Source: Promethearchaeota archaeon (GTDB taxonomy: Archaea; Asgardarchaeota; Lokiarchaeia; Sigyniarchaeales; SOKP01). Taken from it: a stretch of DNA of 64,000 bases. The DNA lies in assembly GCA_018238625.1 (NCBI GenBank), contig JABCSY010000001.1:1-64000 (forward strand), in the 5' to 3' direction. A model generated the notes under the pieces. The model saw only the letters and a list, made by a program, of their open reading frames with translations. It ran no database searches and had not been told where the DNA came from. Positions 48,277-63,336 of this stretch are shown piece by piece (within the stretch, counting starts at the first letter, position 1; every line of letters starts with the position of its first letter). The position numbers were made by a program, and so were the translations under genes.

Positions 48277-49371
48277 TCACACATTTCTATAAAACGGTGT
48301 AGCAACTACTTTTCCTCTCAAGAACTTATTGCGAATTTCAATTTCAAATTCCGTTCCTACTTCGCTATATTGTTTTTCAACAAGGCCTAAACCAATTGTT
48401 TTCTTAAGTGTAGGTGAATATCCTCCTGAAGTAACGAATCCAATTTCATTACCATTTTTAAAAATTTTATAATGCTCTCTAATAATACCTCTATCCAACA
48501 AATTCAACCCAACAATAGTTAGATCTGTTCCTTCAGATTTTTGTTTTAATAAAGTTTCTTTTCCAATATAATCAATACCCTCTTTAGGTTTGACGAGCCA
48601 AAAAAGTCCTGCTTCAATAGGCGTGATTGAGTCGCTAATTTCGTGACCATATAACGAGTAGGTTGCTTCTAATCTCAACGAATCTCGCGCCCCTAAACCT
48701 GCTGCTGAGGCTCCAGTTTTAATTAAATCATTCCATATTTTCTCAGCATATTTATTATCAAATGAAATTTCAAATCCTCGTTCACCAGTATATCCGGTTC
48801 TAGCTATAAATATTGGAGCCCCGTTTAACATAGTGTGAGCAAAATAAAACCTATTTATCGAAGATAAATCAACATCCACTAATGGTTGGAGATATTCGTC
48901 GGATTTTGGACCTTGAAACGCTAAACGACATCTTTTTGAGGATAAATTAGTAATTTTAACATCTTTACTTCCAATATGCTCGTTTAACCATTGAAAATCT
49001 TTTTCGACATTGCCAGCGTTAACGATCATTCTAAATCGCTCAGGTTCTTCCTCGTAATAAACAAGATCGTCAACAACAGTCCCATTTTCATAACACATAC
49101 ATGAATATTGTCCTTTTGTGGGTTCTAGTAGCTTTAAATCGTTAATCATTACATATTGAAGAAAGGATATTACATCTTTCCCTTCTAACAGGAATTCCCC
49201 CATATGTGAAACATCAAATATACCCGCTTTATTGCGTACCGCTTCGTGTTCTTTTATAATGCTTTCGTACTGCACTGGCATACTAAAACCAGCAAAGTCA
49301 ACCATCCTTGCTCCTAAATTCACGTGAATATTATAAAATGGAGTCTTTTTCAGTTCTTGAATCAAATCCAC
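48277..49371 (-). CDS. gcvT: Glycine cleavage system aminomethyltransferase T
   Basis: FAGFSMPVQY, FDVSHMGE, RTGYTGERGFE and GLGARDSLRLEA motifs. Confidence 0.97.
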   Translation of the reverse strand: MDLIQELKKTPFYNIHVNLGARMVDFAGFSMPVQYESIIKEHEAVRNKAGIFDVSHMGEFLLEGKDVISFLQYVMINDLKLLEPTKGQYSCMCYENGTVVDDLVYYEEEPERFRMIVNAGNVEKDFQWLNEHIGSKDVKITNLSSKRCRLAFQGPKSDEYLQPLVDVDLSSINRFYFAHTMLNGAPIFIARTGYTGERGFEISFDNKYAEKIWNDLIKTGASAAGLGARDSLRLEATYSLYGHEISDSITPIEAGLFWLVKPKEGIDYIGKETLLKQKSEGTDLTIVGLNLLDRGIIREHYKIFKNGNEIGFVTSGGYSPTLKKTIGLGLVEKQYSEVGTEFEIEIRNKFLRGKVVATPFYRNV

Positions 49372-50252: not shown

Positions 50253-51206
50253 ATAAAAATACTCCTATTTGGCCCTGGTGGTGCGGGTAAAACGTCATTA
50301 ATGCGGACTACTTGTTTAGGTTATAATTTCATGAAAGTACTTAATCTGAAACCTACAAAAGGAGTCTCGAGGGAAAACTTTATATTTAGGGGAATAATGG
50401 AACTTTCCATCTGGGATTTAGGCGGTCAGGAACTTTATATGGAAAGATATTTCTCGGAAAAACAGCGAGAGCTTGTGTTTTCTGAAGTAACAGCTGCAGT
50501 TTTCATGGTTGATTCGGCAGCAGAAGAACCAAAACTAAAAGATACCTTTGGCAAATTCTTGAAATACCTTTTCGAATTTAGTCCTGAAGTAGGAAAAGTA
50601 TACGTCTTATTAAATAAAACTGATCTTCAAGAATCAAAAGAAGATGACATTTATGAACTATTAATTAAAGATCTTACAGACGATTTAAAAAGCAAAATTG
50701 CTTTTACACCTGTATCAGTAAAAGAGGGAAGTGCTCAACATCGATTGATCGAAATACTCGATTATAAAATTCAAGAGAACACATTAGCTTTACAAAGACT
50801 TGGGAAAATACGCCATTTGTTAGACCAATTGAAGATCAATACGCTTTCAGAATTTCTTTTGTTTAACCAACCAGATGGTTTATTAATAGCATCCACAATA
50901 GGAAAATTTGAAAGTCCAAATCTCCAATTCCTCCGTTTTGAAATAGGAAGCCTTGATTCAAATATATATCAAATCTATACAAAGATTATGGAACTTTCAG
51001 ATTCTTCGATTTCTCCTTTAGAATTATCGACAGTTATATATGAGAGCGAACATAACTACATCTTAGTGAAGGAAGTTAGCAATGGATCGGTACTGATGGT
51101 TGTTACTAAAGAGAAATCCATTAGTATTTTTAATACTGTGATGGACGACTTAAATGGCGAAAATTTCCAAAATTTGAAAAAATTCCTTAGTAGGGACGAT
51201 TTTTAA
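50253..51206 (+). CDS. Rag/Gtr1-like GTPase with C-terminal roadblock domain; probable non-canonical ATA start upstream of the track ATG (50301)
   Basis: In-frame upstream sequence gives (I)KILLFGPGGAGKTSLM. It continues with PTKG, WDLGGQELYMERYF..QRELVF and NKTD, then a roadblock-like FLLFNQPDGLLIAS. Confidence 0.85.
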   Translation: MKILLFGPGGAGKTSLMRTTCLGYNFMKVLNLKPTKGVSRENFIFRGIMELSIWDLGGQELYMERYFSEKQRELVFSEVTAAVFMVDSAAEEPKLKDTFGKFLKYLFEFSPEVGKVYVLLNKTDLQESKEDDIYELLIKDLTDDLKSKIAFTPVSVKEGSAQHRLIEILDYKIQENTLALQRLGKIRHLLDQLKINTLSEFLLFNQPDGLLIASTIGKFESPNLQFLRFEIGSLDSNIYQIYTKIMELSDSSISPLELSTVIYESEHNYILVKEVSNGSVLMVVTKEKSISIFNTVMDDLNGENFQNLKKFLSRDDF

Positions 51207-52285: not shown

Positions 52286-53590
52286 TTAATGAGAAGCGCA
52301 CGATATGCAAGGATCAAATGCTCTTATCATTATTTGAGTTTTTTCTTTAACAGACTCGATATCTTCTTTTTCATATAGCTTCTTAGCATATTCAGTGATC
52401 ATTTTGTTAATAATAGGCAAATTTATTTCGGTTGCAATGAAAAGCTTTACTTGATCAACGGTTTTAGCTTTATTTAAGTGATAATGATGCATTAGTATAC
52501 CTCTTGGTGCTTCGATAACCCCTATCCCATTTGATTTTTTTATTGAGTTTAGTTGTTTAAGTTGTGTTTTACTTTTTAGTGAAGTAGTATTTAATATTTC
52601 AATACTTTTTTGAATTTCGCAATAGCTTTCAATTAATTGTAAAAAGTTTAAAAATAATAAATTGCTTTTCCATTTTTTTCCAAAATTACCCATATATTCG
52701 GATATTTTATCTATCCCATAATTTTGAGTTAACCTATAGCGCGCTATTGGTCCTGTTAAAATCTTATTTTTCGAATTCGACTTAAAAGTAATCCCATAAA
52801 GATTAGAGTCTTTATCAAAATATTTTGAATAATTTTTCGCTTGAAAATCGTCGTAAGTTGTTTCACTTCGTTTAATTCTAAGGTCTCCTTCATACCTATC
52901 AAACCCCATATTATTCTTTAAGCCGAAATATATAGGGTTAGAAAGATTAAATTCTGTAGGAGGTTCAAAAGCAGAAAATAAATCTATAAAATTTTCAATT
53001 AAGGTTTCTATGTAGTAAATTCCCTTTTTTAGATATTTCTCCGTAAAAATTAAACTTTTTCGAGTAGGATTGAATATTAATCCTCCCGGAATCGGAGTAA
53101 TTGGATGTAGTGCCCTTCCTCCTATTAATTTGTTTATTTCTGAACCAATTTTTATTAAATTAAATACATTTGTCGCTAAATGAGGATTGTAATTAATTAA
53201 ATTATAAGAATCGTTATCAATAGTTTTAATTTTAAATATTTTTAATAAATCTGGAAAGGACTGTAAAAAATAATGCATAATGTGCGATTTTATTAATTCT
53301 CCAGACAATAATACCTTTCTAAGCAAAATTGATTGGTGTGATGGTTCTATTCCGTATATACTTTCTATTGCTTTGCAACTTGCAATTGTTTGAGATGCGG
53401 AGCATTGTCCACAAATTCTAGATGCAATTTTTGGAATATCTAATAGCTTTTTACCTACTAAAATATTTTCAAATCCTCTAAATACTGAAAAACTCAATTC
53501 AGTTTGATAAATTTCATCGTTTTTTAAATAAATGTTTAAGTTTCCACAACCTTCAACCCTTGTGCATGCTTCTACAACTTTATCCATCAA
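52286..53590 (-). CDS. [NiFe]-hydrogenase large subunit, group 3 (MvhA/HyhL-like), with no C-terminal extension
   Basis: TRVEG, RGFE, L1 RICGQC, EAPRG.L.HHY and L2 RAFDPCISCASH followed directly by the stop codon. Confidence 0.9.
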   Translation of the reverse strand: MMDKVVEACTRVEGCGNLNIYLKNDEIYQTELSFSVFRGFENILVGKKLLDIPKIASRICGQCSASQTIASCKAIESIYGIEPSHQSILLRKVLLSGELIKSHIMHYFLQSFPDLLKIFKIKTIDNDSYNLINYNPHLATNVFNLIKIGSEINKLIGGRALHPITPIPGGLIFNPTRKSLIFTEKYLKKGIYYIETLIENFIDLFSAFEPPTEFNLSNPIYFGLKNNMGFDRYEGDLRIKRSETTYDDFQAKNYSKYFDKDSNLYGITFKSNSKNKILTGPIARYRLTQNYGIDKISEYMGNFGKKWKSNLLFLNFLQLIESYCEIQKSIEILNTTSLKSKTQLKQLNSIKKSNGIGVIEAPRGILMHHYHLNKAKTVDQVKLFIATEINLPIINKMITEYAKKLYEKEDIESVKEKTQIMIRAFDPCISCASH

Positions 53591-54351
53591 TCCTTCCCTC
53601 CTACATGTGATTTTGAGAACCTATAATAAATCCCTTTATATTTTCTTAGATCTTTAGAAAGATTAAAAAGGCTTAAGAAATTGATTAAATTCGAGGTAAA
53701 CCCCTTTGAAACAGGACCTAAACATCCTTCACAGGGTAATCCTTGATTTATGCAGAGATGGTCGCAGCCATCCCGAGTAACAGGGCCTAAACATAAAATC
53801 CCATCGTTCAAAAAACACGATAAATTTTCTTCCGGAAAACGAATTTCATCGTTTCTTGGAACTATCTTTTCTATTGTTAATGGTAAATCTAATTTTGCTT
53901 GGTTGTTTAAAGGACAAGTAGAACACATATTTTTTGAGCTTAGCTCGAATTTTTTGTTCTCAACTAGCCTTAATAAACAATTTCCTAAAAGTATAGATGG
54001 AGGCGGGCATCCAGGTATAATACCATCAACTTCTACAAACTTTGAAATAGGATACGCTTCTTTTTTATTTGAGAGACTAAGAATTCCCCCAAACGCTGAG
54101 CATGTACCTAATGCATATAGTTTTTTTGCATTTTTTCGTATTTCTTGAAGATACTCGATTTGATTCTTTTCTGATACGCACCCCTCTACTAGCGCTATAT
54201 CGCATTCTTTAATCTCTAAATTATCAGATATAAATGGAAAATATTCGATTTTCGTTCTTTCAAGAAATTGTGGAAATATATCTAGCGATATTAATGCTGA
54301 TATACATCCAGTACAAGAAGTTAAAGATGTAATTAAAAATTTAAGCCTCAC
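53587..54351 (-). CDS. [NiFe]-hydrogenase small subunit (MvhG-like)
   Basis: SCTGC, LVEG, GTCSAFGG, IPGCPP, CSTCP and CLGPVTRDGC..LC....PCEGCLGP motifs. Confidence 0.9.
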   Translation of the reverse strand: MRLKFLITSLTSCTGCISALISLDIFPQFLERTKIEYFPFISDNLEIKECDIALVEGCVSEKNQIEYLQEIRKNAKKLYALGTCSAFGGILSLSNKKEAYPISKFVEVDGIIPGCPPPSILLGNCLLRLVENKKFELSSKNMCSTCPLNNQAKLDLPLTIEKIVPRNDEIRFPEENLSCFLNDGILCLGPVTRDGCDHLCINQGLPCEGCLGPVSKGFTSNLINFLSLFNLSKDLRKYKGIYYRFSKSHVGGKD

Positions 54352-56887
54352 TTTTAATCTCCTCCTTTAGTAAATTATAGAATTTATTAGAGATTTCAGC
54401 AAATAGCTGTCCTTCTACTCCGTTTAAACTCATCACTATTATCCGTCTGCTTAACTTTGGTCCTAGAATCTTTTTTAAAAGCCCAACTCTTTTTTTTAAT
54501 TTTTCAATCCCGTCAATATATCTACAAGAATCCTTTCTGCAACCGATAATCATAACTCCGTCAAACCCCATTTCAAGAGATTTAACAATGAATTCAGTAT
54601 CAATACGGCCAGTACAAGGAACAGAGATTATAAAAACATTAGGTTGATATAACAATTTCTTTAATCCTGCATTGTCAGCGGCAGCGTAACCGCACGATTG
54701 GCAACAAAAAGCGATGATTTTTGGTTTTTTATTGAATTTTGAGAAAATTTCGATCGTTTTTAAAATCTTTTCTGATGTATTTATATTCATTTCGATGGCA
54801 TTAGTAGGACAAACACTAACACACATACCACAAGCTTTACATTTAAACTTATCAACAGTAATTTTTTCGGAGTTTATGCTTATTGCATTGTAAGGGCAAG
54901 AAATAACGCAGAGGTTACACAATCCACATTTGTCTTCATTAATCTCTATTCCAGTATATTCTGTTATTAAATAATCGTTTGAAAGAAGTGATATTACTTT
55001 TAACGCTATGTTATTGGTGGTTGCTATAGTCGAGTGATAATTTAATGGGCCAAATATTGTTCCAACACCATAAATACCAGAAGCTAAAGTTTCTTCACTC
55101 ATAAAACCATAATCATTTAAAGTGAAGTCCATAATCTTTCTTAGAGATTTCAAATCCTTATTTGGAATTAATTTAAGGTTTAAAACAATCAAATCACTTT
55201 GAAACTCAATAGAATCCGCAATTACATAGTTAATATTCTCTTTTGTCTCAATTAATACTTTATTAGCGTAAAGAAATCTCGGATGAGTAGATTTTAGTAT
55301 TATCTCGTCTTTTTCTTTTAGTTTACTTAAATCGTAAAAAACATTAACTTCACAATCAGGGCTCTTTACTTTAATAACATCTATATACTTTAGGGTTAAA
55401 ATATCCGAATATTCACATAGATAGTTTGAAGATCCAACTTCTTGAATAATTGATATTGTTTTTACTGGTTTCCCATCAGATAATTTTACTATCTTTCCAT
55501 CAGTTAGGCCATCTGAACATAAAATTCGTTCAAATTCTGCTGAAGTTATAATATTATTTTGTGGATTATAATTATATTCTTTTAAATTTGAAGAAAGATC
55601 TGAACCAATAGCTATAACTTTAGCGCCTACTTTAATTCTTAATTCCTTAGGCTTTTCTCTTAAATTAATTGCTTTATTTGCACAAGCACGTTCACATATT
55701 CCACATTCAAGGCAGCTTTTAATATCTTCATCGTCAATAACAGGAACATAAGGATAACAATATTGAAAAGGAAAGTGAATTATTTTTCTATGCGTTAAAC
55801 CAAATTCATATAGATTAACTTTCTCTCGAGCACACACATCCACACATTGCTTACAACCTGTACATTTTGTCTCATCAACATAGCGAGGATTTTTAATTAA
55901 ACTTATAGTAAAATTGCCAACTTCTCCCGATACGCTAATTATTTCCGTATTTGTCAAGATCTCAATATTATTTTCTTTCACAATTTCCCCAATTAATTCG
56001 GAGATTAAACAAGTAGAGCAATCTCCCATATTTGAAATCTTTTGCCATCTTGCTACTTTTCCTCCTAATGTAGGAGACTTTTCAATTAGGTAACACTTAA
56101 TACCTGCCCTTGATAAGTTTAACGCTATATTCATACCAGCAATCCCTCCTCCCAGAATTGCGCAACTTTTTTCAACTTCAACTCTTTTTATCTTAATTGG
56201 TTTTTGAAGACTTACTCGATTAACTGAGGCTTCAATAAGTAATTGCGCTTTTTTCAAAGTTAAAAGGCTATCAATGTGCTTTTTACTTGAATAATGTACC
56301 CAACAACATTGTTCTCTTATATTTGCAATCTCAATATTAGCATTATCAATTATATTATGAAAAAGACGTTCAAATACATGTTGATGTGTTTTAGGAGAAC
56401 AGGCAGCGATAACAATTTTATTTACGAAGTTATCAGTAATCCAATTATTAATTTTATCTTGGTTTTTTTCTTGACATAAATTATCAAGAATTTTAACTGA
56501 GACTACATTATTTATTTTACTTGCATAGTTTTCTAAGGAATTAATGTTAAGGACATTTGAAACTTCTGTATTACAATTACAGATGATAACACCTATTCTG
56601 TTTATTTCGCTTCCTTTTGATTTTAAATAGTCTATTTCCTCTCCAGATAAAATTCTTTTATTTAATCCTAATATCCTTAAAACTCTTTTACCGTCATCTG
56701 TTAAATAATATGATTTTTTGTCTTTACTTACTAAATTATTAAGCTTTTTCAAATGAAAATTTAATTGCCCTGTTTGTTCTATACCTAACTTCATCATTAA
56801 TTCAGTATATGGAATAAAACCTTCTTCTTCGAGAATGTATAAGAGTTTTCTTCTGATTGGATGAGCTAAAATTGAATAAATATCCAT
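54341..56887 (-). CDS. Fusion protein: ArsR-like winged HTH, HdrA-like flavo-FeS protein (partly degenerate) and MvhD [2Fe-2S] domain
   Basis: aa 1-75 LAHPIRRKLL...YTELM...GQLNFHLKKL...YYLT..G. HdrA motifs RIGVIICNC, AACSP, ANIREQCCWVH, GGGIAG, EFER and two ferredoxin pairs. MvhD motifs FCCQSCGY, PCTGRID and GC...CRY. Confidence 0.88.
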   Translation of the reverse strand: MDIYSILAHPIRRKLLYILEEEGFIPYTELMMKLGIEQTGQLNFHLKKLNNLVSKDKKSYYLTDDGKRVLRILGLNKRILSGEEIDYLKSKGSEINRIGVIICNCNTEVSNVLNINSLENYASKINNVVSVKILDNLCQEKNQDKINNWITDNFVNKIVIAACSPKTHQHVFERLFHNIIDNANIEIANIREQCCWVHYSSKKHIDSLLTLKKAQLLIEASVNRVSLQKPIKIKRVEVEKSCAILGGGIAGMNIALNLSRAGIKCYLIEKSPTLGGKVARWQKISNMGDCSTCLISELIGEIVKENNIEILTNTEIISVSGEVGNFTISLIKNPRYVDETKCTGCKQCVDVCAREKVNLYEFGLTHRKIIHFPFQYCYPYVPVIDDEDIKSCLECGICERACANKAINLREKPKELRIKVGAKVIAIGSDLSSNLKEYNYNPQNNIITSAEFERILCSDGLTDGKIVKLSDGKPVKTISIIQEVGSSNYLCEYSDILTLKYIDVIKVKSPDCEVNVFYDLSKLKEKDEIILKSTHPRFLYANKVLIETKENINYVIADSIEFQSDLIVLNLKLIPNKDLKSLRKIMDFTLNDYGFMSEETLASGIYGVGTIFGPLNYHSTIATTNNIALKVISLLSNDYLITEYTGIEINEDKCGLCNLCVISCPYNAISINSEKITVDKFKCKACGMCVSVCPTNAIEMNINTSEKILKTIEIFSKFNKKPKIIAFCCQSCGYAAADNAGLKKLLYQPNVFIISVPCTGRIDTEFIVKSLEMGFDGVMIIGCRKDSCRYIDGIEKLKKRVGLLKKILGPKLSRRIIVMSLNGVEGQLFAEISNKFYNLLKEEIKSEA

Positions 56888-56943
56888 TTCTGAGCTTTCC
56901 TATTGATTTTTTATTTTAAATTTATTTTGTTAAAAAAAAAAAT

Positions 56944-57163
56944 TTGACAAATTATTTTTTCTTCATGACAATATATGTTGTAAAAATATATAAATGTGTT
57001 AGAAAATGATCATATGATCCGCGAATTTCATTAATAAAAATGACGATTTTCGATTAACTAAAAAATTTGTTTAGAAAATAATTTTGATAATATTTCTTAT
57101 CAATATGTTAAAAAATTTTCTTGTCAAATTCTTTTTATTTTAGGCTTATGACAATTTAATTAG
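56944..57163. promoter_or_regulatory. Divergent promoter region with repeated TTGAYAA/TTRTCAA half-sites, including a perfect TTGATAA-N6-TTATCAA (57084-57103) and ATGACAA-N6-TTGTAAA (56965-56984)
   Basis: Read directly. Further half-sites at 56944, 57121 and 57148. TTTATATA on the minus strand near 56987-56994. Confidence 0.6.
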
Positions 57164-57209
57164 GTAAGTATTTTTTTAAAAAGTTGAAATAAAAGAGGTG
57201 TATTATTAT

Positions 57210-57827
57210 ATGGAAGTATTGGAATTGAAACCAGTAAAAAATAAAAAAATAATAGTGTATATGTCCTCAAAAGAAAATGGTAGGTATTTTCAAAATCAAG
57301 ATACATCAAGATTAACTGATTTTCTCAAAAAGAAAGATGTTAACTTTGTAACCGTAGATTTTCAAGTAGATATGAAAGTGTTTAAGAAAACACCTTTTGC
57401 ACAAACATTAGATAAACTTGGAATACCATATATTCAAGTAGATATTCCAGATTATGCAATGGGATATCTTTACGAAGAAATTGTCGAAAAACAAGAACTT
57501 CAAAATGAATTATTTGAAGAATACGACAATATGAGCGATAAAGAATCTTTCAAAGGGCAAAGTCTAAAAAATTGGATTGACATGCTAAGCGAAGAAATTC
57601 AAGAAAGAGAGATTTTTTTAAGCTTGAAACTAAGACCACAGTGGATCGTAAAAAAAATGCTAGATTTTGCAAATCGTTTTGAAAATGAAGTGGTTTCTTT
57701 TGTACATTTTGTTCAAGAGGATATTTGCGAGGATATTTGCCCTCAAGTCGTTGCAAATTTAAGAGATTTGGGAGTAAAAGTAATTTCCTATACTAAAAAA
57801 CACACAATTCAAAATATTATATTTTAA
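57210..57827 (+). CDS. Hypothetical protein (paralog A), alpha/beta core with coiled-coil hairpin insert
   Basis: GAGGTG SD-like motif before ATG 57210; similarity to the 57851 and 62140 ORFs. Confidence 0.7.
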   Translation: MEVLELKPVKNKKIIVYMSSKENGRYFQNQDTSRLTDFLKKKDVNFVTVDFQVDMKVFKKTPFAQTLDKLGIPYIQVDIPDYAMGYLYEEIVEKQELQNELFEEYDNMSDKESFKGQSLKNWIDMLSEEIQEREIFLSLKLRPQWIVKKMLDFANRFENEVVSFVHFVQEDICEDICPQVVANLRDLGVKVISYTKKHTIQNIIF

Positions 57828-57850: not shown

Positions 57851-58582
57851 ATGCCAGAAGTATTAGAATTAAAGCCATTAAAAGATAAGCATTTAAAGCT
57901 TATCATGGTAGAAAGTGAGTTTCCAATAGATTGGTGGTTCGAAGTTCCTAAAGAAAAAAAGGAAGATTTGCTATGGTCTTTACATCTTATTAGCAAAGAA
58001 TATCTTCAGCTCATCGATGGTTTAATAGACAAATATTCACCTGATTTTGCTTTAGAAGAAAAACCTAATTTTTGGGATGACCCGTTAAACCCTAACGATC
58101 CTCTAAAAACATTACTCAAAAAGAAAGGAATTCGATTTAAACATGCTGATATCTCTGAAAATGCGGAATTTTATCTTTCTGCTGCTTTGGATGAACACAG
58201 AAGTATGCTACAAACACTTGAAAAACGAATCAAAGAGATAATTACAGAAAATGGTGGTGTTCCTTCCGAAGATGAACTTTTCCAACAATTAGTTTTATGG
58301 AAGGACTATCTCAAAAATGATTATGACTCACAAGAAGATGAAATACGATATAAAGTTAGAGAAGCTTGGATGATGATGAATACTCTAAACCTTGCAAAGG
58401 AGATTAAAGGGAAAAAATTAAAGGGGTTATTTATTTGCGATTTAAGGCACTTTGAAGGCTTAGATAAGTTAGCAAACGATTTAGGCATCGATACAGAGCA
58501 GATTAAAATTAAAAGAACTATTAAAACCGCAGAAATCGAAAAAGAGTATGAAGAAGAGGTAGAAGTTGAAATATCTAAATAA
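57851..58582 (+). CDS. Hypothetical protein (paralog B), possibly TraB/GumN(TIKI)/ChaN-like fold
   Basis: GGAG SD motif; PDFALEE and REAWM...GLFICDLRHFEGL pattern; N-terminus EVLELKP shared with paralog A. Confidence 0.65.
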   Translation: MPEVLELKPLKDKHLKLIMVESEFPIDWWFEVPKEKKEDLLWSLHLISKEYLQLIDGLIDKYSPDFALEEKPNFWDDPLNPNDPLKTLLKKKGIRFKHADISENAEFYLSAALDEHRSMLQTLEKRIKEIITENGGVPSEDELFQQLVLWKDYLKNDYDSQEDEIRYKVREAWMMMNTLNLAKEIKGKKLKGLFICDLRHFEGLDKLANDLGIDTEQIKIKRTIKTAEIEKEYEEEVEVEISK

Positions 58583-58636
58583 TTTTTTTTTTAGTTATAA
58601 TTTCTATGAATTTTATAGTTTAAATAACGATGTGAG

Positions 58637-59650
58637 ATGAGAAAAATTACTCAAAATGATGAAATTGGAAATAAAATTGAAAGTATTCTCGGTAAAAAAT
58701 CAATAATAGAATTGACGCCAATTAAAATAAAGAAAAAGGATAGTTCAGATAAGATTTGCTATTTTTTTGACACGGATGATAACGCTTCTCCGTTTGACAT
58801 AAACATGGCTTACGACGCTGGTTTTGATATCGTTGTGCCAATAAGTAAAATGACGGCGGATCAAGTTCCTAAACTTGTCCAGGATGCTATATTTTCACGT
58901 AAACCTAAAGCACGGACAACATTTTTTATTGGGGGATCTAATGTAAAGGAGGGGGAAAAAATCGCTAGGAAAGTCATTGAATCCTTAGTACCTCCATTTG
59001 AATGTCCCGTAATAATAGATCCAAGGGGTTCTCATACTACTGCTTCTGCTGTTGTAGCTAAGACTTTATACGACGCTAAAAATATCCATAAAATTAGTGA
59101 TTTAAAAGGAGAAAAAGTCGTAATCTATGGGGCAGGCCCAGTTGCCAGAATTGCTGCTATATTAGCAGCAAAAGAAGGGTTGAATGTATTTTTAGTTGAA
59201 ACTTGGGATAAATCGAACGAAGAATTTATAAAAAATCTTGCTAAAGAAGTAACCGAAGAAGCTGGCGAGGGTGCAACCGAGATTAAAGGGGTGTTTGCGC
59301 CTGAAAAAGAACAAAGATATGATGTTGCTAAAGATGCGCTTATTATCTGGTCTTTAGCTGCTGCTGGTGTTGAAATTTTATCAAGCAATCTAATGGAAAG
59401 ATTAGAAGGTAAGAAAATTGTAGTAGATATCAATTTAGTTCCCCCTTATGGAATTGAAGGAATAAGACCAAAACACGATAATAAAGAAATATATTCAGGA
59501 ATTTTTGGAATCGGAGCATTAGCATTAGGTCGATTAAAAGCAAATTCGGAGGGAGAAATATTGAAAGAAGCAACAAAAACTAAAGGTACAAAGGTATTTG
59601 ATTATAGCTATGCGTTCGAAGTTGCTAAAAAATTGTTATCTAAGATTTAA
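58637..59650 (+). CDS. NAD(P)-dependent methylene-H4MPT dehydrogenase (MtdA/MtdB family)
   Basis: SPFDINMAYDAG, VQDAIFSR, FIGG, DPRGSHTTASA, GAGPV, DINLVPPYGIEG and GIGALALG motifs. Confidence 0.9.
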   Translation: MRKITQNDEIGNKIESILGKKSIIELTPIKIKKKDSSDKICYFFDTDDNASPFDINMAYDAGFDIVVPISKMTADQVPKLVQDAIFSRKPKARTTFFIGGSNVKEGEKIARKVIESLVPPFECPVIIDPRGSHTTASAVVAKTLYDAKNIHKISDLKGEKVVIYGAGPVARIAAILAAKEGLNVFLVETWDKSNEEFIKNLAKEVTEEAGEGATEIKGVFAPEKEQRYDVAKDALIIWSLAAAGVEILSSNLMERLEGKKIVVDINLVPPYGIEGIRPKHDNKEIYSGIFGIGALALGRLKANSEGEILKEATKTKGTKVFDYSYAFEVAKKLLSKI

Positions 59651-59712: not shown

Positions 59713-61986
59713 ATGGTTGAGAATATTGATGGGATTGTAAGTAAAGTAAGGATAAAAGACGCATTCAAAGAAGACGCAGGGAGAGGTATTGTAAGAGTAG
59801 ACCCAGAAATAGTTTCAAATTTAAAACTTAAGGTAGGTGATGTAATTAAAATCATCCATCCTGTAGTAAATAAAAAAACTGTTGCTTCTTTGTCAACAGG
59901 AAAAAATGAAGATAAAGGAAAAAAGATTATTCGTATGGATCCCTCCCTAAGACGAAATTTAGGAGCCTCAATTGATGACCTTGTTGAAATAAAAAAAATC
60001 AGTGTAGATATTGCCAATACAATAACCTTTGCTGGGTTAGATAATTCATTAATCCCACGAGATCCTCAAGCTTTAGCTAGAAAACTAGAAAATAGGGCAA
60101 TTACAAAAGGAGATAGCTTAAGTTTCTACGCTATGGCTCGCAGAATTGACCTTGTAATCGTTGATTACACTCCTAATTCTGAAGCGGTTAAAATTCAACT
60201 TGATACAAAAATATTATTTAGTGAAAAATCAACTCAAGAAATTAGCGAAATAAAAAAAAAAGAAATAACATATGAAGGAATTAGTGATTTAGAACAGAGA
60301 TTACAAGAGATTCAGGGAAAAATAACATACGAAGATATAGGTGGTTTAGAGGATTCGATTCAAAAGATTAGAGAAATGATTGAACTACCAATTAGACATC
60401 CTGAACTTTTTGAAAGAATTGGAATTGACCCTCCAAAAGGAGTTCTGCTCCATGGGGCTCCAGGTACAGGTAAAACATTACTAGCAAAAGCAGTAGCTTA
60501 TGAGACTGATGCCTATTTTATAAATATTAGTGGCCCTGAAATAATGAGTAAATTTTTTGGTCAAAGTGAAGAAAATCTTCGAAATAGATTTGAAGAAGCA
60601 AAAAATAACGCCCCCTCTATTATTTTTCTCGATGAATTAGATTCAATTGCTCATAAAAGGGATGAAAATAAAGGTCAAGTAGAATCAAGAGTTGTGGCTC
60701 AACTTTTATCTCTTATGGATGGTTTAGAAGGGAGAGGTGAAGTCATAGTCATTGGTGCAACGAATAAAATAAATAATATTGATATAGCACTAAGAAGACC
60801 AGGTCGTTTTGACAGAGAAATTGAAATTAAAGTACCTGATACTAAAGGCCGCTATGAAGTTTTATTGATCCATACTCGAGGAATGCCTTTAAATGAGGAA
60901 ATTGATCTAAATCTTATTGCTGAAAAAACACATGGTTTTGTCGGTGCAGATATAAAATCTTTATGCAAAGAGGCAGCTATGCTTGCGATTAGGGAGATAC
61001 TACCTAATATTGACTTAGATAAACCTATACCGGAAGAAATTTTAAACAAATTAATAATCAAAATGACACATTTTATTACAGCATTAAATAGTATTGAGCC
61101 ATCTGCATTAAGAGAAGTGTTCGTTACACAGCCAACTGAGACTTGGGAGGATATTGGCGGATTAGAAGATGCAAAGCAGCAATTAAGAGAAATAGTTGAA
61201 TGGCCATTTAAGTACTCGGGGTTCTATAAACATATGAAATCAAGACCCCCTAATGGAATTTTAATATTTGGTCTTCCTGGGACCGGTAAGACATTAATGG
61301 CTAAAGCGCTTGCCCATGAAACCGAAGTAAATTTTATTTCAGTAAAGGGTCCTGAATTTTTATCAAAATGGGTTGGTGAAAGTGCTAAAGCTGTAAGAGA
61401 AGTATTTCGAAAAGCAAGAACGGCTGCTCCTTGTATTATATTTTTTGACGAAATTGATGCTATCGCAGCAAGAAGGTCAACATCCTCAAGTTCAAGGGTT
61501 ATTGAACAAGTTGTAGCGCAATTTTTAACAGAAATGGATGGTTTAGAAGAATTAAAAGATGTTATATTAATAGCGGCTACAAATAGACCCGATATTCTCG
61601 ATCCTGCCATTCTGCGTTCAGGAAGATTCGGAAGGCATATAGAAGTTCCATTACCAAATAAAATATCTCGAATTAAGATATTTAAAATACACCTCGCTAA
61701 TCGTCCAATAGATAATAATATTGATATTGAAAAACTGGCAGAAAGGTTAGAAGGAAATACAGGAGCGGATATAAAAGCAATCTGCGAAGAAGCTACACTT
61801 TTAGCCATTCGCAGAAGTGTCATTAACAATAATATAGATACACAAAATCCTGATTCATATAAAAAGGTTAAAATTTCTCAAGCTGATTTTGAAAAAGCAA
61901 TAGAAAAAGTACAATTAGGCGCTAATAAAGCTAAAAGGGCTTATAAAGAAACTATTAAAGAAACTGTCGAAGATATTTACAGATAA
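59713..61986 (+). CDS. cdc48: CDC48/VCP/VAT AAA+ ATPase
   Basis: N-domain [10 protein letters not shown]; D1 [12 protein letters not shown]; D2 [12 protein letters not shown]; C-terminal IYR (HbYX). Confidence 0.95.
60265..60378 (+). repeat. Imperfect in-frame 57-bp tandem duplication inside cdc48 ([19 protein letters not shown] / [19 protein letters not shown])
   Basis: ATAACATATGAA at 60265 and ATAACATACGAA at 60322; 19-aa period. Confidence 0.75.
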
Positions 61987-62002
61987 AAAAAATTAATTAA
62001 AC

Positions 62003-62098
62003 TTGTCAAGGATATTTTTTGAAAAATAAAATTATCAATTTATCAAAAATTTTTCTTATCAAATTCTTTAAATTTGTCGCTTAAGAGTATTTAATTAG
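62003..62098 (+). promoter_or_regulatory. Second copy of the promoter/operator block found at about 57084-57163
   Basis: Ungapped match at offset 4935: 62046-62098 vs 57111-57163 has 43/53 identities by hand count. TTGAAAA-N6-TTATCAA at 62019-62038 aligns with 57084-57103. Confidence 0.65.
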
Positions 62099-62139
62099 AA
62101 TGTATAAAAAAATTAAATAAAAATTAAAAGGTGTATATA

Positions 62140-62391
62140 ATGGTGATAAGTTTGGTTAATGAAGTAAATAGTTTTGAAGAAAAAATCGTTTTATCTTCTA
62201 AAAGTGAATTTATATCTGAATTTGCTCGAGGTTACTTTGAAGCGGAGATAATTGAAAAAGAAACACAATTAAATGAATATTTAAATGCGTATAATGCTAT
62301 TCGTGAGAAAGACTCATTTAATAAACAATACATAGAAACTTTAATATATTTATTAAAATCTGAAATAAAGGGAATCCAAAAATTGTTTTGA
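62140..62391 (+). CDS. Small protein (paralog C) corresponding to the helical-hairpin insert of paralog A
   Basis: ISEFARGYFEAEIIEKETQLNE...KDSF aligns with IPDYAMGYLYEEIVEKQELQNE...KESF. AGGTG SD-like motif upstream. Confidence 0.7.
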   Translation: MVISLVNEVNSFEEKIVLSSKSEFISEFARGYFEAEIIEKETQLNEYLNAYNAIREKDSFNKQYIETLIYLLKSEIKGIQKLF

Positions 62392-62487: not shown

Positions 62488-63336
62488 TTAAGCTTCTTTT
62501 TCGTGCAGCTTTCTCTTGGTTAAAAGATGTTGCTTAGAATGATGAGGTGTTCTCAATACTGTATCGTTAGATTTTTCTATTTCTCTGGCTTGTGTGCATA
62601 ATTCAGCAGCTGTTTTCATCATTTCGTGAGATGCAGCTAATAAAGGCATATATTCGGCTCTATCTTTTAAAACAAAGCACGCTCTTCCCGTAATCTTAGA
62701 AACTGAAGCTGCTAATTCAAAAGCTGCAATAGCTTTAGCTTGGGCGTAAGGATTTGAAAAGCCTGCTGCCTCTGTAGCGTTAGTGGCTTTAATCTCGATT
62801 TGAGGTAAAGTAGGGGCCTTCCCTTCTAACATATCCATTATAACTTTATTTAATTCGTTAGTTATTATATTAAAAGCACCAGTAATCGCAAGAACTTTTA
62901 ATAGATCTGCATTGAAACAACTCATCTCGACAGTGTCTAGAAATGGACGCCTTGCTCCTATCATAGAGTCACAGCCTACTATTATATATCCCATGTTTTT
63001 TTCTTTAAATTCTTCGATAGCCTTTTTTGCTGGAGCATCAGAGATTATAATCGTAGGAATATTTCCTGCTAATTCTCTTGCTGCTTTCGGTCCTTTTAAC
63101 GCTGCATTTGGGCTGGACATTAAGATTAATTCCGGTTCAAATTCTAATAATTTTTTCATAGTTTCTACGCATTCCTCTGGAGGGTTCATCTTCGCTCCCG
63201 AGGTAACTTCTCGCACAACTATATTCTTAGATTCTGCCCTTTCATCCAGTAAAAAAGCAAGTAATAACGAAGAACCAATTGTTCCATTCTTAAGTATCCC
63301 AATTTTTAAAACTTTTTCTTCACTCATTTTTGACAA
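62488..63336 (-). CDS. mtd: F420-dependent methylene-H4MPT dehydrogenase; start may be the ATG at 63327
   Basis: LLDERA, SGAKM, SPNAALKGP, DSMIGARR.FLD.VEM..FNAD, NPYAQAKA, AREIEK and RTPH motifs. Confidence 0.95.
   Translation of the reverse strand: MSKMSEEKVLKIGILKNGTIGSSLLLAFLLDERAESKNIVVREVTSGAKMNPPEECVETMKKLLEFEPELILMSSPNAALKGPKAARELAGNIPTIIISDAPAKKAIEEFKEKNMGYIIVGCDSMIGARRPFLDTVEMSCFNADLLKVLAITGAFNIITNELNKVIMDMLEGKAPTLPQIEIKATNATEAAGFSNPYAQAKAIAAFELAASVSKITGRACFVLKDRAEYMPLLAASHEMMKTAAELCTQAREIEKSNDTVLRTPHHSKQHLLTKRKLHEKEA

Follow-up and report, generated by a model that had tools for sequence, protein, structure and literature searches.

Is a hydrogenase-linked HdrA protein that begins with a DNA-binding-type domain a sensor, an enzyme, or an enzyme that also regulates its own synthesis? 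The question is raised by a locus in a 64,000-nucleotide (nt) stretch of DNA, hereafter the window, from a Promethearchaeota archaeon with a genome of 4.29 Mb (contig JABCSY010000001.1, positions 1-64,000; whole contig 109 kb). Positions 52286-56887 hold three open reading frames (ORFs) on the minus strand, 54341-56887 (848 amino acids, aa), 53587-54351 (254 aa) and 52286-53590 (434 aa), which encode a fusion of a winged helix-turn-helix, an HdrA body and an MvhD domain, and the small and large subunits of a [NiFe] hydrogenase. A first interpretation from the letters alone, the sequence-only reading, had taken this for the scaffold of a bifurcating complex repurposed as a sensor. The data are better matched by a functional enzyme to which a regulatory domain has been added, given that the cofactor ligands are invariant, that an MtdA-like enzyme is part of the operon in two Asgard families (f14 and f9), and that the genes diverge like canonical Mvh-Hdr. 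The explanation that we favour, if by a small step beyond even, is a working HdrBC-independent hydrogenase module whose HdrA subunit may also regulate its own operon, in the manner of a trigger enzyme.

Architecture and conservation of the fusion protein

In the 848-aa protein, Pfam detected DUF7347 at aa 2-72 (E 2e-10), the start of a Rossmann/flavin adenine dinucleotide (FAD) domain at 241-320, Fer4 domains at 341-404 and 647-700, and FlpD/MvhD at 724-841 (E 2.3e-33). The HdrA2 model (NCBIfam NF040770) aligned with aa 97-842 over model positions 1-770 of 777 (E 1.5e-166); its 555.7 bits lie below the curated cut-off of 1100, and two HdrA models reached 402 against 1300 and 350 against 1400, again below the family cut-offs. 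The solved HdrA chains 8rvu, 8rvv and 5odc (residues 2-650) matched the HdrA body at E about 1e-104 to 1e-106. Because the alignment to five solved HdrA sequences begins at aa 93-97 and never earlier, aa 1-92 are an addition to HdrA. The ORF call and both domain searches bear out the uninterrupted three-part ORF described at the outset, and the overlaps of the three genes were verified by reading the junctions directly: TGATG joins the stop codon of the small subunit to the ATG of the large subunit, and the GTG start of the small subunit, preceded by AAAGGAGGAG, lies 11 nt within the end of the fusion gene.

Of the 120 relatives ranked best in the database (64-94% identical, 815-855 aa), 112 had the N-terminal domain (counted by hand from the listing). 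The eight relatives without it were 815-819 aa long at 96% coverage, and both values suggest that they are later start calls. The source names among the 120 were Loki/Promethearchaeota, Thor-, Hod-, Hermod- and Odinarchaeota. Among 301 Asgard genomes sampled, full-length matches that began at query residue 1 or 2 were spread over seven families, at identities down to 36%. Gene order was examined in 48 loci (that of the window plus 29 closely and 18 distantly related loci), and the fusion gene, the small subunit and the large subunit were directly consecutive on the same strand in 48/48. The survey proposed together with the sequence-only reading thus rejects an assembly artefact or a fusion specific to this contig, and the architecture is confirmed as real and conserved across Asgard families. 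A scan of prokaryotes with one genome per species found 598 relatives; among the best 80, which were inspected, matches from residue 1 occurred solely in Asgard records, and those of Archaeoglobi, Methanocellales, Thermoplasmata and bacteria began at about residue 25-97 or later.

No description of a DNA-binding domain on HdrA, or of DUF7347 at all, was found in the full-text literature, including that on Asgard hydrogenases and HdrA, a scope outside which lay subscription journals and the supplementary gene tables of Imachi 2020 and the Asgard metabolism papers, which might list the domain; the architecture had likewise been thought undescribed. The accessible part of a paper on archaeal gene fusions reports HdrA-HdrA-MvhD fusions in Loki- and Thorarchaeota and leaves a winged helix unmentioned.

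All iron-sulfur (FeS) and FAD ligands of HdrA and MvhD, including the GGG..G motif, were unchanged across 37 sequences. In HdrA, the invariant residues comprised G246-G248, G251 and the Cys residues at 103, 105, 138, 163, 290, 293, 342-352, 392-402, 654-664 and 683-693; in the MvhD domain, which scored 115 bits against a FlpD cut-off of 22.3, they comprised C729, C732, C758, C783 and C788. Elsewhere in the genome, two MvhD-domain matches (C119:2526-2888 and C32:13836-14204) contain two in-frame TGA codons each, candidate selenocysteine codons that also occur in several HdrA paralogues of other Asgard genomes.

The hydrogenase and its genomic partner

The ligands of the hydrogenase subunits were equally well kept. 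Twelve Cys residues of the small subunit, sufficient for three clusters, were invariant in 19/19 orthologues, and the four Ni-Fe Cys of the large subunit (RxCGxC, DPCxxC) were retained in 19/19 and 18/18 orthologues. The best PDB match of the large subunit was 7t2r_D, HydL of a bifurcating [NiFe] hydrogenase (4.9e-49), and MvhA 5odc_F reached 1.8e-44; the ranking ran from 7t2r through MvhA, NAD-reducing and Frh to sulfhydrogenase, with the best solved relatives all belonging to group 3 and not to group 2. Against NCBIfam, the large subunit scored 174.7 bits with ShyA (group 3b), 153.7 with VhuA (group 3c) and 136.3 with FrhA, all below the cut-offs, and the best model for the small subunit was VhuG. 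Linkage of the hydrogenase genes to MvhD and HdrA, as in group 3c (Mvh-type), was found in 48/48 loci.

The conservation of all cofactor ligands argues for a working hydrogenase module and not a pure H2 sensor. The three genes would encode an Asgard-specific, flavin-based electron-bifurcating (or confurcating) module, in which electrons could move in either direction between H2, the [NiFe] large subunit, the small subunit with its three [4Fe-4S] clusters, the [2Fe-2S] cluster of MvhD, and the FAD and FeS clusters of HdrA. Sequence identity between orthologues drops from HdrA to the small and then to the large subunit. Faster evolution of the large subunit was considered as a sign of a sensor and rejected, for canonical Mvh-Hdr paralogues diverge in the same order; judged by sequence divergence, the module appears to be under no relaxed constraint.

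The large subunit does have unusual traits in part of its range. In the window and 11 related loci (L136-L143, L145, L148 and L172) it stops at the His of DPCxxCxxH, without a C-terminal extension, and its first motif reads RxCGxCxxxQ, with Gln replacing the usual L1 His, a replacement that we take to be a trait of sensors. For a group-3 enzyme, such an end and such a replacement are uncommon. In other Asgard families, the orthologues continue for 5-13 residues beyond the His, and those of families f21, f18, f14 and f9 mostly retain the L1 His. Another variant was noticed in three loci of family f9 (L070-L072), in which the RxEGH motif reads RGGGPS or KVGGPS and the Glu is lost; in standard [NiFe] hydrogenases this Glu has a part in proton transfer.

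Which enzyme could exchange electrons with this module? Neighbourhoods were counted in the 19 loci with several kb of flanking sequence, and hdrB or hdrC adjoined the fusion locus in none of them. The absence of hdrB and hdrC, remarked on earlier for the window, holds for the entire 109-kb contig, on which tblastn (E<=1e-3) detected no HdrB or HdrC relative and on which none of the 43 CCG-domain matches of the genome is located. The maturation protease gene missing from the window also has no counterpart nearby, the sole HycI-type match of the genome sitting on a different contig.

A long MtdA-like protein (~565 aa) adjoined the fusion locus in 13/19 loci. It consists of an N-terminal domain, here called X, for which no Pfam or NCBIfam family was found and Atlas gave unnamed Asgard clusters only, and of an MtdA-like part (Mpt_N and a Rossmann domain). 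Fold searches with the protein were taken up by matches to its MtdA half. Residues 256-548 of a 565-aa orthologue superposed on MtdA of Methylorubrum (M. extorquens) with a Z score of 39.6 and a root mean square deviation of 1.8 A (288/289 residues aligned; Foldseek E 8.7e-23). The NCBI name of the family is NAD(P)-dependent methylene-tetrahydromethanopterin (H4MPT) dehydrogenase; it occurs in Asgard archaea and Bathyarchaeia and was present in 62/301 Asgard genomes. In f14 and f9 loci the MtdA-like gene is the fourth gene on the same strand, and in f21 loci and the window it is divergent. A tblastn search with the 565-aa form covered 57857-59638 of the window, where six stops part a 243-aa X ORF from a 337-aa MtdA-like ORF; the additional 209-aa X paralogue of the window is 32% identical to a paralogue on contig C162 of the same genome.

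Paralogues without the winged helix show a different setting. Fourteen such HdrA-MvhD proteins of other Asgard genomes start straight at the HdrA motif, and hdrC and hdrB were found near 11/14 of them, three with the full order of HdrA-MvhD, MvhG and MvhA together with HdrC and HdrB. The genome of the window itself has only two [NiFe] large subunits, that of the window and one on contig C95, where a canonical cluster (C95:30000-39082, L079) encodes a small subunit (438 aa), a large subunit (438 aa), an HdrC-like protein (175 aa) and an HdrB-like protein with two CCG domains (290 aa). The hydrogenase module of the window is therefore read as probably HdrBC-independent, with gene linkage as a proxy, association in trans being possible. 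Its likely metabolic partner would be the long MtdA-like dehydrogenase and not HdrBC, and such a partnership could link H2 to the H4MPT-dependent one-carbon (C1) pathway.

As in MvhAGD-HdrABC of methanogens (5odc, 8rvu), there are a group-3 large subunit, a small subunit, an MvhD, and an HdrA with the same cofactor ligands; unlike in that complex, MvhD is fused to HdrA, an ArsR-type winged helix stands in front of HdrA, hdrB and hdrC are missing from the vicinity and an MtdA-like gene is the conserved neighbour. The HdrA-MvhD fusion as such is shared with HdrA2 and with the Asgard paralogues without a winged helix, which differ in starting at the HdrA motif, in the nearby hdrCB (11/14) and in the lack of the palindrome described below (0/14). 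Two papers on Asgard archaea name a group 3c hydrogenase with HdrABC, or 'MvhADG-HdrABC'. By its gene content and linkage, the present module is best classed as a distinct, Asgard-specific variant of the Mvh-Hdr theme, not Mvh-HdrABC.

Several other proteins were noticed around these genes. In five f14 loci (L065-L069), a protein of ~80 aa with four CxxC pairs, resembling a double zinc ribbon, is conserved just upstream of the fusion gene and in the same orientation, and f18 loci have a different Cys-rich protein of 116 aa in the divergent position. On contig C162 (C162:1-8000, L073), a pair of a 209-aa X protein and a 556-aa X-MtdA-like protein faces an operon for a PyrK-like FeS protein and a Fer4-FrhB-GltD-like fusion (>830 aa), and a CCG-Pyr_redox fusion adjoins the pair.

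The winged helix and a candidate operator

The N-terminal domain had been called ArsR-like, and profile searches agree. A profile built from 23 N-termini matched the ArsR-like repressor 1y0u (3.3e-6) and PagR 2zkz (4.3e-3), and DUF7347 and HTH_20 were each detected in 23/23 N-termini at E<=0.01; the copy of the window scored 46.2 bits with DUF7347 (cut-off 27.6) and 16.5 with HTH_20, below the cut-off of 27. In the AlphaFold2 model of the 848-aa protein (mean predicted local distance difference test, pLDDT, 84.4; predicted template modelling score, pTM, 0.60), the domain has helices at 3-7, 10-22, 27-34, 39-48 and 64-80 and strands at 24-26, 53-56 and 59-62, at pLDDT 82-88. The predicted succession of helix, helix, strand, helix, recognition helix, two-strand wing and helix is that of ArsR/SmtB repressors such as 1y0u and PagR, from which the protein differs in that the domain is fused to a 750-aa redox enzyme. 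Twelve residues were invariant in the alignment (Y4, H9, R12, L16, L19, G40, H45, K48, K55, Y60, L62 and G66), of which R12, G40, H45 and K48 belong to the recognition helix or its vicinity, and K55 and Y60 to the wing. Outside HdrA, the closest relatives of the domain were small DUF7347 proteins, tandem winged-helix proteins and proteins with a winged helix and tetratricopeptide repeats (TPR). A complex prediction for two copies of aa 1-95 scored 0.32 against a mark of 0.42, and is evidence neither for nor against dimerization of the domain.

Upstream of the fusion gene, DNA that is otherwise unalignable between families contains a shared palindrome, TTGAYAA-N6-TTRTCAA. With a spacer of 6, at least 12/14 positions were matched in 34/47 upstream regions, and nine other spacers gave 0-9/47; the perfect core GAYAA-N6-TTRTC was counted by hand in 34/47 loci. 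An unbiased count of inverted dyads recovered TTGA-N12-TCAA in 9/16 representative regions, where controls yielded A/T runs only. The palindrome was found in 1/30 upstream regions of another redox operon of the same family, in 0/14 loci of the paralogues without a winged helix and in 0/5 loci with an MtdA-like gene but no winged helix. By eye, no covariation of the recognition helix with the half-site was evident.

The window's family has two copies of the palindrome, which in the window are both in the region 56900-57200 in which the sequence-only reading had proposed to look for DNA binding. The distal copy (57084-57103) is the sole perfect spacer-6 copy in the 4.29-Mb genome, and its position at about -215 to -240 is kept across family f1. 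The proximal copy follows a TATA-like box, and such a box stands directly before the proximal palindrome in 19/47 loci, all of the window's own family. In archaea, a site directly behind the TATA box is typical of repressors, and the proximal copy may be the one through which repression is exerted. Between the two copies, at 57008-57019, lies a second conserved element, GATCATATGATC (core ATGATCA), which recurs in many related upstream regions. The other region singled out beforehand, 62000-62130, holds a cluster of half-sites, bordered by the end of the CDC48 gene on one side and on the other by an 86-aa ORF without a convincing family (62131-62391). At least four exact half-sites within 200 nt occur in only two places of the genome, the intergenic region of the fusion gene and this cluster at 62003-62062, which are 5 kb apart, and half-site clusters were found at the equivalent position in five related loci.

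A large regulon was rejected, since genome matches of at least 13/14 numbered 23 at spacer 6 and 17-28 at other spacers; the annotated intergenic matches elsewhere adjoin unrelated genes (e.g., ESCRT, tRNA synthetase, DtxR-like). A second target on contig C162, a 13/14 palindrome ~100 nt upstream of the X gene, is an unconfirmed lead, as orthologous loci had it in 1/30 and X is adjacent in this genome only.

A specific, conserved palindrome in a promoter region is best explained by self-regulation. Most likely, the tethered ArsR-type winged helix would bind TTGAYAA-N6-TTRTCAA in the region common to its own operon and the divergent MtdA-like genes, and the bound enzyme would regulate its own synthesis. 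PutA is a trigger enzyme of this kind, a flavoenzyme with a DNA-binding domain in which repression is controlled by the redox state of the flavin. In both proteins, a single polypeptide unites a redox enzyme with a DNA-binding-type domain, and here a candidate operator lies in the protein's own promoter; the differences are the ArsR-type winged-helix fold, an enzyme that is part of a multi-subunit hydrogenase, and the putative nature of both DNA binding and redox control. As a tentative and rather unlikely extension, HdrA could be an ArsR-type repressor in which the redox state of FAD and FeS clusters, set by H2, ferredoxin and C1 pools, would decide whether the winged helices of an HdrA dimer occupy the candidate operators, which would overlap the promoter of its own operon and that of the MtdA-like genes.

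The features discussed are collected in Table 1. The locus is flanked by genes for a Gtr1/RagA-type small GTPase (50301-51206) and a CDC48 ATPase (59713-61986), and C1-metabolism genes are abundant around it, among them an F420-type Mtd (62488-63336) and GcvT (48277-49371). Contigs from two RNA libraries (X3 and X6; one sample; relatives 90-99% alike) span parts of the fusion and MtdA-like genes and were not used as evidence, as level, strand and start are not readable from them and the intergenic region is uncovered.

Table 1. Features of the fusion locus and its surroundings, in window coordinates
Feature	Position	Strand	Basis
Group-3 [NiFe] hydrogenase large subunit, ATG at 53587	52286..53587	-	NiFeSe_Hases; PDB matches; four Ni-Fe Cys
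MvhG-like [NiFe] hydrogenase small subunit, 254 aa	53587..54351	-	Oxidored_q6; best NCBIfam model VhuG; 12 invariant Cys
Winged-helix-HdrA-MvhD fusion gene, 848 aa	54341..56887	-	ORF, translation, Pfam, NCBIfam, AlphaFold2 (mean pLDDT 84.4)
MvhD (FlpD) domain, aa 724-841	54365..54718	-	Pfam FlpD; genome search
HdrA body, aa 97-713: N-terminal FeS, FAD, inserted and C-terminal ferredoxin domains	54749..56599	-	Alignment to solved HdrA residues 2-650
Linker, aa 81-96, probably flexible, invariant G82	56600..56647	-	pLDDT <50 for aa 81-93; alignment
ArsR-type winged helix-turn-helix, aa 1-80 (recognition helix 39-48, wing 53-62)	56648..56887	-	Pfam, profile of 23 N-termini, AlphaFold2 model
Proximal palindrome TTTACAA-CATATA-TTGTCAT, 12/14	56965..56984	.	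2 nt behind TATA-like box
TATA-like box TTTATATA, putative core promoter for the fusion gene	56987..56994	-	Read from sequence, scored
Distal palindrome TTGATAA-GAAATA-TTATCAA, 14/14	57084..57103	.	95 nt upstream of divergent 209-aa gene
Divergent gene, 209 aa, paralogous to domain X at the N-terminus of the long MtdA-like protein	57198..57827	+	Protein clustering; no Pfam/NCBIfam family
X-domain protein, 243 aa, a separate gene here, corresponding to the N-terminal half of the long MtdA-like protein	57851..58582	+	tblastn; Asgard-only clusters in Atlas
MtdA-like NAD(P)-dependent methylene-H4MPT dehydrogenase, 337 aa	58637..59650	+	Mpt_N 5.5e-26
Four exact half-sites (TTRTCAA/TTGAYAA), including a 13/14 palindrome at 62019-62038	62003..62062	.	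Genome-wide cluster search

Alternative explanations and implications

Two genomes of one genus in family f9 bear on whether the winged helix has a role of its own. Neither yielded an orthologue of the fusion, and in each the locus lacks the HdrA body together with the two hydrogenase genes. In one (G218, 93% complete; L126, C113), the winged helix and linker are fused in frame to the MtdA-like protein (658 aa), and in the other (G275, 80% complete; L127, C48) the winged helix stands alone as an ORF of 90 aa, with 4 nt between its end and the MtdA-like gene. Both are most simply seen as deletions of the HdrA body and the two hydrogenase genes, and the intact winged-helix ORF in each speaks for a function of its own. 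The G218 fusion was also considered as a 'Rosetta stone', a role since downgraded: a search of the protein database gave no other fusion of this kind, the closest winged helices (81-82% identical) there belong to HdrA fusions of 842 aa, and the G218 protein is probably a deletion derivative.

A number of points weigh against a self-regulating enzyme. The motif was defined on the same 47 loci in which it was counted, many of them closely related, a problem that the spacer control and the three control sets lessen without removing it. Thirteen of the 47 loci fall below 12/14, including five of one f1 subgroup (L047-L051), in which the palindrome is absent, and the core never exceeds 8/10 positions in family f18. 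Another regulator could bind the palindrome. Each of the two variants without hydrogenase genes has altered one otherwise invariant residue (H45R; Y60H), and their winged helices may be decaying remnants. Finally, the lack of a C-terminal extension in the large subunits of the window's family is a trait shared with H2 sensors, suggestive and not diagnostic, and shared with Ech-type enzymes too.

The alternative that survives best, to which we give a minor but real probability, is an ordinary enzyme in which the winged helix is a structural or docking domain without DNA binding and a separate regulator binds the palindrome. There is a precedent: a 2026 preprint describes BamF, an MvhD-like adaptor of class II benzoyl-CoA reductase, with a winged helix-turn-helix that contacts BamI (10.64898/2026.04.10.717634), placing a winged helix within an HdrA/MvhD-type bifurcating complex. 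As described there, that winged helix is internal to the adaptor and touches another subunit, whereas the present one sits at the N-terminus of HdrA, attached by a flexible linker, and is accompanied by a palindrome. The genome of the window also provides eight DUF7347 matches and many other possible regulators. One of these matches stands at the N-terminus of a 672-aa protein on contig C131 (L080, 2310-4325), followed by an NrdD-like domain (anaerobic ribonucleotide reductase family), and is a second winged-helix-enzyme fusion in this genome; with DUF7347 also on an NrdD-like enzyme, the domain may have a general, non-regulatory role.

Several results nevertheless speak for a DNA-binding role. 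The palindrome tracks the winged helix (34/47 loci with it, as opposed to 0/14 paralogues without it and 0/5 MtdA-like-only loci), and where the MtdA-like gene is on the same strand, the winged helix is the sole DNA-binding-type domain in the conserved gene set. The model places it on a low-confidence linker, not packed against HdrA. Its closest non-HdrA relatives are small tandem winged-helix and winged-helix-TPR proteins, and G275 has it as a free-standing 90-aa copy.

We consider improbable a dedicated one-component H2/redox sensor without a metabolic role, in which H2-reduced HdrA alone would switch DNA binding. The DNA-binding-type domain, the candidate operator and the absence of an HdrBC partner at the loci and on the contig would suit it, as would the extension-less large subunits of the window's family: PMC7294309 gives large subunits without the extension as typical of H2 sensors, and it lists the catalytic CooH and Ech-type enzymes as extension-less too. 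An 850-aa protein with six fully conserved FeS clusters and FAD would be a costly sensor, however, and the operon linkage to an MtdA-like enzyme, the extension and His retained by orthologues of other families, divergence ratios like those of canonical Mvh-Hdr and the presence of just one other [NiFe] large subunit in the genome all count against it. The closest solved relatives are catalytic group 3 and not group 2b, the group of the regulatory hydrogenases HoxBC/HupUV, which act with a histidine kinase. The present system resembles those in a possible coupling of H2 to transcription and, in the window's family, in the extension-less large subunit; it differs in its group-3 relatives, in a DNA-binding-type domain that is fused directly, and in the short extension of the orthologues in other families; a kinase partner was not seen, although no search was aimed at one.

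Non-specific nucleic acid binding, as a nucleoid tether or to RNA, with an unrelated palindrome, is highly improbable: the first 80 residues do contain 14 Lys/Arg against 9 Asp/Glu (counted by hand), but the palindrome co-occurs with the domain and residues within the recognition helix are invariant.

A working, self-regulating hydrogenase module would matter for several reasons. Hydrogen exchange is central to current ideas on Asgard syntrophy and on how eukaryotic cells came into being, and this module, among the most conserved hydrogenase loci of the phylum, has so far been annotated as an ordinary 'MvhADG-HdrABC' or 'hydrogenase iron-sulfur subunit'. The analysis offers results that can be tested at the bench: a distinct, HdrBC-free hydrogenase tied to an MtdA-like C1 enzyme, a repressor-type domain on HdrA, and a palindrome newly found here as a 20-bp candidate operator. 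If the domain does bind the palindrome, it would constitute a new coupling of H2/redox state to transcription, direct and without a kinase, and would open a way into the gene regulation of organisms whose cultivation is very difficult. If the redox-switched repressor is true as well, it would be the first case of a hydrogenase complex made into a one-component transcription factor that responds to H2/redox, of ancient origin and wide distribution among the Asgard relatives of eukaryotes, with a role in tuning syntrophic H2 exchange.

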